A model generated the notes under the pieces. The model did no database searches. It saw only the letters and a program-made list of their open reading frames with translations, and had not been told where the DNA came from. The translations under genes and the position numbers were made by a program. A DNA stretch of 9,973 nt from a virus (lineage: Duplodnaviria > Heunggongvirae > Uroviricota > Caudoviricetes), in IMG/VR virus record IMGVR_UViG_2645727991_000023, positions 1 through 9,973 of that record; one strand, 5' to 3'. Below are positions 5,864-7,738 of this stretch, piece after piece; positions within the stretch are counted from its first letter, which is position 1; each line of letters begins with the position of its first letter.

Positions 5864-7738
5864 ATGAGTAAAGTCTTTATTTGCGCCGCCATTCCGGACG
5901 AACAGGCAATAAAGGAAGAAGGTGCAGTCGCTGTAGCTACTGCCATTGAAGCCGGTGATGAACGTCGCGCCCGCGCAAAATTTCACTGGCAATTCCTGGA
6001 ACATTATCCGGCTGCTCAGGACTGCGCTTATAAATTTCTTGTCTGCGAGGATAAACCCGGTATACCCCGCCCTGCCCTCGATTCCTGGGATGCTGAATAT
6101 ATGCAGGAAAACCGCTGGGATGAGGCGTCTGCTTCCTTTGTCCCGGTTGAGACTGAATCAGATCCGATGAACGTCACTTTTGACAAGCTGGCCCCTGAAG
6201 TACAGAACGCTGTCATGGTTAAGTTCGACACATGTGAAAACATCACCGTTGATATGGCGATTGACGCGCAGGAATTACTGCAAGAAGACGTGGCTACCTT
6301 TGACGGGCACATCGTTGAAGCACTGATGAAAACGCCTGAAATTAACGCTATGTATCCGGAACGCAAACTGTTCGCTATCGGATGGGTTAAACACAAATGT
6401 AAGCCGGGTACCAAATGGCCCGAAATTCAGGCTGAATTACGTAACTGGAAAAAACGGCAGGACGCAGAGCGCAAAGAGACTGGAAAATACACGTCTGTTG
6501 TTGATCTTGCCCGCGCCAAAGCCAACCGACAGCACACTGAAAACCCAGCAGAAAAAATCCCTCCTGTAACTGCCGCCATTCATCGCGAATACAAGCAGAC
6601 ATGGAAAACCCTGGGCAGGGAGCTGGCCTACTATCTCTGGCCTGGTGATGCGGATGCCGGAAACATTGACGGCAGCATCCTTCGCTGGGCTAAAAATGAA
6701 GTTATCGCCAGAGATCGCGAAGACTGGAAGCGCATCTCCGCATCAATGCGCAAACAACCTGATGCGCTTCGCTACAGCCGCCAGACTATTTTTGGCCTTG
6801 TCCGTGAACGCCCGATCGACATTCACAAAGATCCCGTGGCACTGAACAAATACATCACTGAATACCTGACTACAAAGGGCGTGTTTGAAGATGACGAAGG
6901 AACAAATCAGGGCACAGCTAATACTCTCTCGTCGCCAGTACCAGAAACTGACGCAGTGGAAACGGCAATTCAGGACAACGAAAAAACCGAATGCAAAGTG
7001 GAAGTCGAATCATCTGTAGAGCGTGAGGGGCCGTTCTACTTCCTCTTCAGCGACAAGGATGGCGAAAAATACGGTCGTGCAAACAAACTTTCTGGTCTGA
7101 ATAAGGCGCTGGCTGCAGGGGCTACTGAAATCACGAAAGAAGAATATTTTGCCCGCAAAAACGGTACATACTCAGGTTCACAACAAAATACTGGTGCATC
7201 TGACACGATCGCACAACCGGAGCCGGTAAAAGTTACCGCTGACGAAGTAAACAAAATTATGCAGGCAGCCAATATCAGCCAGCCTGACGCCGATAAGTTG
7301 CTTGCTGTATCACGTGGTGAATTTGTTGCAGGGATTAGCGACCCGAATGATCCGAAATGGGTGAAGGAGATTGAAACCCGCGATTCAGTGAATCAGAACC
7401 AGCAAGAAACGGAACAGAACGACCAGAAAGCGGAACAAAACAGCCCAAATGCGTTACAAAACGAGCCAGAAACGAAACAATCCGAACCAGTAGTGCAACA
7501 GGAACCGGAAAAAGTCTGCACCGCCTGCGGTCAGAGCGGTGGCGGCAACTGCCCCGATTGTGGCGCTGTCTGGGCAACGCAACATACCAGGAAACATTCG
7601 ATGAAGAGAATCAGGTTGAAGCTCAGGAGAATGATCCGGAGGAAATGGAAGGCGCTGAACATCCACACAAGGAGAACACTGGCGGCAATCAGCATCACGC
7701 CAGCGATAGTGAAACTGGCGAGGCGGCAGATCCCTTAA
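5864..7738 (+). CDS. Large acidic early-operon protein (624-aa ORF as read); the last ~55 codons appear out of frame
   Basis: GAGG 10 nt upstream of the ATG. Long ORF with protein-like composition through CTACGQSGGGNCPDCG (CxxC-x7-CxxC) to about 7573; after that the frame turns into an R/K-rich tail typical of out-of-frame reading. A segment (...LLAVSRGEFVAGISDPNDPKWVK...) vaguely recalls RecE-family proteins; unverified. Confidence 0.6.
   Translation: MSKVFICAAIPDEQAIKEEGAVAVATAIEAGDERRARAKFHWQFLEHYPAAQDCAYKFLVCEDKPGIPRPALDSWDAEYMQENRWDEASASFVPVETESDPMNVTFDKLAPEVQNAVMVKFDTCENITVDMAIDAQELLQEDVATFDGHIVEALMKTPEINAMYPERKLFAIGWVKHKCKPGTKWPEIQAELRNWKKRQDAERKETGKYTSVVDLARAKANRQHTENPAEKIPPVTAAIHREYKQTWKTLGRELAYYLWPGDADAGNIDGSILRWAKNEVIARDREDWKRISASMRKQPDALRYSRQTIFGLVRERPIDIHKDPVALNKYITEYLTTKGVFEDDEGTNQGTANTLSSPVPETDAVETAIQDNEKTECKVEVESSVEREGPFYFLFSDKDGEKYGRANKLSGLNKALAAGATEITKEEYFARKNGTYSGSQQNTGASDTIAQPEPVKVTADEVNKIMQAANISQPDADKLLAVSRGEFVAGISDPNDPKWVKEIETRDSVNQNQQETEQNDQKAEQNSPNALQNEPETKQSEPVVQQEPEKVCTACGQSGGGNCPDCGAVWATQHTRKHSMKRIRLKLRRMIRRKWKALNIHTRRTLAAISITPAIVKLARRQIP

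Follow-up and report, generated by a model that had tools for sequence, protein, structure and literature searches.

The window, meaning the whole stretch of DNA that was analysed, comprises 9,973 nucleotides and corresponds to bases 21-9993 of contig JHSU01000021.1, assembly GCA_001266125.1. Its gene context is that of the early-left arm of a Qin-like lambdoid prophage. Genes are arranged in the order DUF1627, DnaC-like ATPase, replisome organiser, YdaT, cro-like/repressor-like, ydfC, DicF RNA, dicB, DUF1482, exonuclease, xis and int, the last two closing the series. DicF upstream of dicB represents the classical Qin-type dicF-dicB cell-division inhibition module. The replisome organiser, encoded on the minus strand at 1546-2634, has 360 aa in the window and in comparison loci L014 and L019, and 364 aa in L012, L013, L015 and L020; the difference is what a 12-base in-frame indel polymorphism would produce. 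The end of the source contig lies 20 bases upstream of window position 1 (contig base 21), inside the prophage and close to the genes DUF1627 and DUF977. Breaks near these genes are also found in several other draft assemblies, and the shared neighbourhood of the breaks suggests a repeat common to co-resident lambdoid prophages. Features of the dicF-dicB module and of the exonuclease gene are as follows.

5168-5219, plus strand: DicF antisense sRNA, full length (Rfam RF00039; score 75 bits, gathering score 48).
5394-5582: dicB, downstream of DicF.
5579-5770: DUF1482 gene.
5864-7570, plus strand: the first 569 codons of the exonuclease gene, still read in the original frame, with the YdfE_N/YdfE_C region, the RecE-like middle module and a predicted zinc knuckle (open reading frame list, translation and precomputed Pfam matches; base for base as in Escherichia coli 14EC001, locus L001, 6058-8532).
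7517-7561, plus strand: C-x2-C-x7-C-x2-C motif CTACGQSGGGNCPDC (Cys552/555/563/566), a probable zinc knuckle just upstream of the lesion (translation, BLASTP).
7570-7571, plus strand: deletion of one base, codon 570 (ATG, Met) having lost its A between these two positions (three-way DNA alignment; GT[CG]ATGGG in 20/20 comparator loci).
7571-7738, plus strand: out-of-frame tail of the 624-aa open reading frame, 55 codons (WATQHTRKHSMKRIRLKLRR...), with the premature stop TAA at 7736-7738 (translation, tail-peptide search).
7573-8337, plus strand: codons 571-824 with the stop codon, shifted here into the -1 frame with respect to codons 1-569 (translation; identical to 14EC001).
7574-7583, plus strand: GCAACGCAAC, a chance tandem pentamer inside the normal codons GGC AAC GCA ACA, G-N-A-T (alignment with intact copies, shuffles).
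7789-8304, plus strand: predicted DEDDh 3'-5' exonuclease domain of the Rv2179c-like family, which forms residues 643-814 in the intact protein and contains MIDIET, NFDN and HNALDD (Pfam PF16473, alignment with PDB 8kel).

Two reading frames meet at the lesion. Frame A, the open reading frame 5864-7738, encodes 624 aa and is protein-like through ...CPDCGAVW (TGG at 7571-7573), then continues as an R/K-rich tail to its stop. The second frame (frame B), which is the -1 frame, opens at 7375 and overlaps frame A over 121 codons. It reads acidic sequence, ...GNATYQETFDEENQVEAQENDPEEMEG..., into the exonuclease motifs. From 7573 it is translated as GNATYQETFDEENQ..., followed by MIDIET, NFDN, HNALDD and the stop at 8335-8337. 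The window sequence around 7562-7588 is GGCGCTGTCTGGGCAACGCAACATACC, with GCAACGCAAC inside it at 7574-7583. The initial annotation, made from the letters of the window, had placed the GCAAC-GCAAC repeat at this position, had taken frame A as coding up to CPDCGAVW and R/K-rich beyond it, and had described the other frame as open from 7375, acidic and leading into the exonuclease; the sequence and its translation agree in all of these points.

Restored to one frame, the protein has 824 aa and consists, in order, of a YdfE-type N-terminal region (precomputed Pfam matches YdfE_N and YdfE_C), a RecE-like middle module with the CxxC-x7-CxxC knuckle, an acidic linker and a C-terminal Rv2179c-like DEDDh domain. 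Pfam PF16473 (Rv2179c-like) matches residues 643-814 of the repaired protein and scores 223.7 bits, the cut-off being 27; the E value is 1.8e-66, and the match runs over profile positions 2-177 of 177. A weak Pfam match of RNase_T falls on the same exonuclease domain. Residues of the DEDDh type (DxE; D; H-x4-D) are present in the translation as MIDIET, NFDN and HNALDD, and the first two align with PDB 8kel, 'Exodeoxyribonuclease'. Judged from these matches, the C-terminal domain is unambiguously of the DEDDh 3'-5' exonuclease type, with predicted activity; the split-off domain had been assigned to this class beforehand, and the Pfam score bears that assignment out. The gene caller of the source places a 180-aa open reading frame with the Rv2179c-like match at 7795-8337. 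In PHROGs the protein has a full-length match to phrog_2082, 'exonuclease'. The PADLOC scan returned a weak generic DEDDh match only (E 7e-5) and assigned no defence system. No functional study of a YdfE/Rv2179c-like prophage exonuclease was found in the searchable literature. Intact members of the family are named 'exonuclease' or '3'-5' exoribonuclease domain-containing protein', ECO26_1771-like, or 'exodeoxyribonuclease encoded by cryptic prophage CP-933P'; the K-12 Qin remnant is YdfE. With the Rv2179c-like/RNase T-type DEDDh exonucleases (PF16473; PDB 8kel, 227 aa) the gene product shares the full-length domain with DxE, D and H-x4-D. These relatives are stand-alone proteins of about 170-230 aa, whereas here the domain forms the C-terminus of an 824-aa protein and is detached from it in the window by the frameshift.

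The middle part of the protein resembles RecE (exodeoxyribonuclease VIII of the Rac prophage). By BLASTP, residues 279-627 are homologous to K-12 RecE (E 1e-64). Residues from about 459 to 627, including the knuckle and the acidic linker, are nearly identical, and the homology stops near residue 627. The likeness thus covers the middle module, the knuckle and the acidic linker where the lesion falls. DNA of window 7480-7680 is about 87-88% identical to recE, and the knuckle motif is kept in K-12 RecE as CNACGQTGGDNCPDC in the BLASTP alignment. The NCBIfam RecE equivalog NF007259 scores 292.7 bits against a cut-off of 1269, below that cut-off, and matches residues 448-627 only. RecE has a C-terminal PD-(D/E)XK 5'-3' nuclease and an adjacent recT; the window gene has neither, ending instead in a DEDDh 3'-5' domain with xis and int downstream. 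Because the equivalog score falls below its cut-off and both the PD-(D/E)XK end and the recT neighbour are absent, the intact gene is not RecE but couples a RecE-like scaffold to another nuclease.

The lesion was located by comparison with intact copies. Of 5426 complete E. coli genomes compared with window 5800-8400 by megablast, 4800 (about 88%) contain related DNA, and in 3489 at least 80% of the query is covered. The best match is E. coli strain 14EC001, in which the gene is an intact annotated 'exonuclease' CDS of 2475 nt and 824 aa (WP_001473550.1). In global alignment with window 5864-8337 (2474 nt) the sole difference is an A after position 7570, missing in the window. Lesion codons are GTC ATG GGC in 14EC001 and GTCTGGGC in the window. 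The intact gene reads GTC ATG GGC AAC GCA ACA TAC (V-M-G-N-A-T-Y), and GCAACGCAAC consists of the N-A-T codons and adjoining bases. The junction was further compared in 20 copies: 12 intact copies of the window-type allele and 8 divergent copies (EC958, EDL933, C11, M9682, K-12-type recE at two loci of one record, and phages Tritos and mEp460). ATG precedes GG[CT] in every one of them, the A being present in 20/20. The prophage exonuclease gene of 824 aa is thus frameshifted here because one A is missing, and the site lies three bases upstream of what the initial annotation had flagged. The missing base does not lie within a homopolymer run (context GTCATGG).

With one base added, the correct repair, the product has 824 aa and reads ...CGAVMGNATYQ... 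through the junction; removal of five bases would give 822 aa and ...CGAVWATYQ.... The deletion also removes Met570. Relative to 14EC001 the junction indel is 1 nt, not a multiple of three, and on the downstream side there follow 55 out-of-frame codons, the stop at 7736-7738 and the Rv2179c-like domain at 7789-8304 in the other frame, as expected of a frameshift pseudogene. With the intact E. coli lambdoid-prophage exonuclease of 14EC001 the window copy shares the DNA apart from one base and the same Pfam families YdfE_N, YdfE_C and Rv2179c-like; with intact copies generally it shares the order dicF-dicB-DUF1482-exonuclease-xis-int at the rspB-side attachment site. It differs in lacking the A of codon 570 and consequently in having a 624-aa open reading frame and a detached exonuclease domain.

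The proposed course of events is as follows. The A of ATG codon 570 would have been lost between window positions 7570 and 7571 of an otherwise perfectly conserved 824-aa lambdoid-prophage gene. Translation from 5864 would then yield residues 1-569, knuckle included, and 55 out-of-frame residues up to the stop at 7738, and the catalytic domain at 7789-8304 would thereby be detached from the upstream part. The base would be missing from the DNA of the bacterium, not only from the assembly, and the function of the product would be lost. Loss of function of this gene copy is the simplest reading.

The deleted allele is confined to the source contig. In the product look-up the exact 624-aa product occurs on JHSU01000021.1 only. 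In the 90% identity cluster an identical intact product (P0006) is found on 102 contigs and the 624-aa form on 1, without an accession; the lack of an accession would fit a depositor's annotation that treated the gene as a pseudogene. The deleted form is found in 0/5426 complete E. coli genomes. A 101-base query gave best matches in these genomes that are 99.0% identical and span 102 bases, and every fully covered row in a spread sample of the matches spans one base more than the query. A 33-base query for the deleted allele gave no match in the metagenome and viral collections. Ten of the 20 comparator copies come from draft assemblies that share the integrase and the rspB-side attachment site of the source contig, and the A is present in 10/10. 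The gene is a complete 824-aa open reading frame in seven of the ten; in L016-L018 it is intact but cut by, or starting close to, a contig end. Compared with L017 and L018, the source contig has 0 mismatches over about 7.5 kb and a single gap, the missing A. Against L014 the missing A is the only indel across 12.26 kb. The lengths of the other prophage and flanking genes on the source contig agree with those in the comparison loci.

The probable explanation, on balance, is an inactivating deletion, very recent and specific to this strain, by which a non-essential prophage gene sporadically became a pseudogene. It is consistent with the intact gene of 14EC001, one base off in 2475 nt, and with the A in all 20 comparator copies. 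The principal alternative, that the one-base gap arose as an error of sequencing or consensus calling in the draft, possibly derived from paralogous prophage copies, and that the gene of the strain is intact with GTCATGGGC at the site, is a serious possibility that falls somewhat short of probable. The deleted form is seen exactly once, as assembly errors also look in a draft: it is absent from the complete genomes and from the metagenome and viral contigs, and is on 1 contig in the gene-position index. No substitutions accompany it in 2475 nt, and a singleton without substitutions fits both explanations. In E. coli this is a multi-copy family, with a median of 2 and a maximum of 10 places per genome by megablast, and such multiplicity invites local consensus errors, and the source is a 66 kb WGS draft contig whose end lies inside the prophage. 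Against an error stand the position of the lost base outside any homopolymer and the locally clean assembly: since there is no other indel in 12.26 kb against L014 and no mismatch against L017 and L018, the source contig does not appear generally error-ridden. Most platform indel errors fall in homopolymer runs. Spontaneous single-base deletions also favour such runs, so that sequence context is weak at telling mutation from error. A real mutation is accordingly preferred to an artefact with modest confidence, and a small remainder is left to exotic explanations. Sporadic indel or sequencing/assembly error, the lesion is of an ordinary, one-off type.

A functional two-frame layout is highly improbable. 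It could consist of a programmed -1 ribosomal frameshift, or of a separate exonuclease domain translated from an internal start or by reinitiation. In its favour, frame B stands in the -1 frame and overlaps frame A by 121 codons, and because the catalytic domain is out of frame a programmed shift rescuing the gene would have to be of the -1 type. One formal X_XXY_YYZ heptamer, CCCAAAT, is present at 7444. It is the sole such heptamer in 7375-7738, where about 0.5 are expected by chance in 121 codons; the junction follows it by about 126 nt, and frameshifting at that point would cost the protein its conserved zinc-knuckle segment. No slippery heptamer occurs at the junction (7560-7580), as the initial annotation had observed. 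For internal starts, the in-frame ATG at 7645 has Shine-Dalgarno complementarity of -9.5 kcal/mol, but merely 2 nt from the ATG; the in-frame ATG at 7795 (-7.3 kcal/mol) lies 57 nt past the frame-A stop and opens the 180-aa open reading frame with the whole domain. Stand-alone relatives are known (PDB 8kel chain, 227 aa). The ribosome-binding contexts of both ATGs are unremarkable, and no homologue has such a layout: none of those examined has two open reading frames, and all are single ones, of about 812-824 aa where complete. The deletion destroys Met570, and the out-of-frame tail is not conserved; the tail-peptide search returned three fragments only (45-92 aa) and no conserved C-terminus. 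Two-protein homologues and a conserved C-terminus of frame A, which the initial annotation had named as the observations that would speak against a broken gene, were accordingly not seen. Its preference for an indel over programmed frameshifting holds, programmed -1 frameshifting being rejected by the lack of a slippery site at the junction and by the unconserved layout and tail. There is likewise only a very slight chance that the split is tolerated or even useful, both a 569-residue N-terminal scaffold (with tail) and a 180-aa DEDDh exonuclease from ATG 7795 or 7645 being made. If true, it would uncouple two activities of a very widespread, functionally uncharacterised prophage protein.

The initial annotation had attributed the frameshift to a 5-bp tandem duplication, GCAAC to GCAACGCAAC; deleting one GCAAC does restore, arithmetically, a single frame of 822 aa, as it had stated, but the alignment with intact alleles rules the duplication out as the cause and leaves it a practically negligible probability. 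The full GCAACGCAAC is present in frame in 12/12 intact copies of the window-type allele, 14EC001 differing by one A only. In the 8 divergent copies, K-12 recE and phages Tritos and mEp460 among them, the ten bases at the same place read GCGACGCAAC or GTGACGCAAC (G-D-A-T), that is, G[CT]GACGCAAC. A duplication would need relatives reading GTCTGGGCAACATACC (single GCAAC, no A). The uninterrupted open reading frame of about 820 aa predicted for homologues was found (812-824 aa), but not the single GCAAC predicted with it: the single pentamer occurs in 0/20 comparator copies, all of which keep ten bases in frame. The nearest intact gene, at 2475 nt, is one base longer than the 2474 nt of the window, not four shorter. 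Since intact homologues hold all ten bases in frame, GCAACGCAAC at 7574-7583 is not the lesion. Tandem 5-mer duplications number 6 in the window against 10.0 +/- 4.5 expected from mononucleotide shuffles, at or below chance. Because the divergent copies read G-D-A-T, the window-type copies read G-N-A-T and ATG is present in all, the perfect pentamer repeat results from a G-to-A (Asp to Asn) difference that marks the allele lineage of the window, with no duplication. A perfect short tandem repeat beside a frame change can be a coincidence.

The result is an annotation-level correction, a one-base deletion and a repaired protein of 824 aa, and matters little. As a frameshifted copy of a prophage gene that is well annotated, the case is of an ordinary, known kind. 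Of wider, incidental interest is the joining of a RecE-like module to a DEDDh 3'-5' exonuclease in place of PD-(D/E)XK, which is widespread in E. coli. Part-length PHROG matches on the repaired protein are phrog_5943 (residues 1-256), phrog_20376 (295-824) and phrog_14078 (561-824). Since separate PHROG families match parts of the protein only, split or truncated annotations of the exonuclease gene seem to recur in phage records, by way of other frameshifts or alternative start calls.
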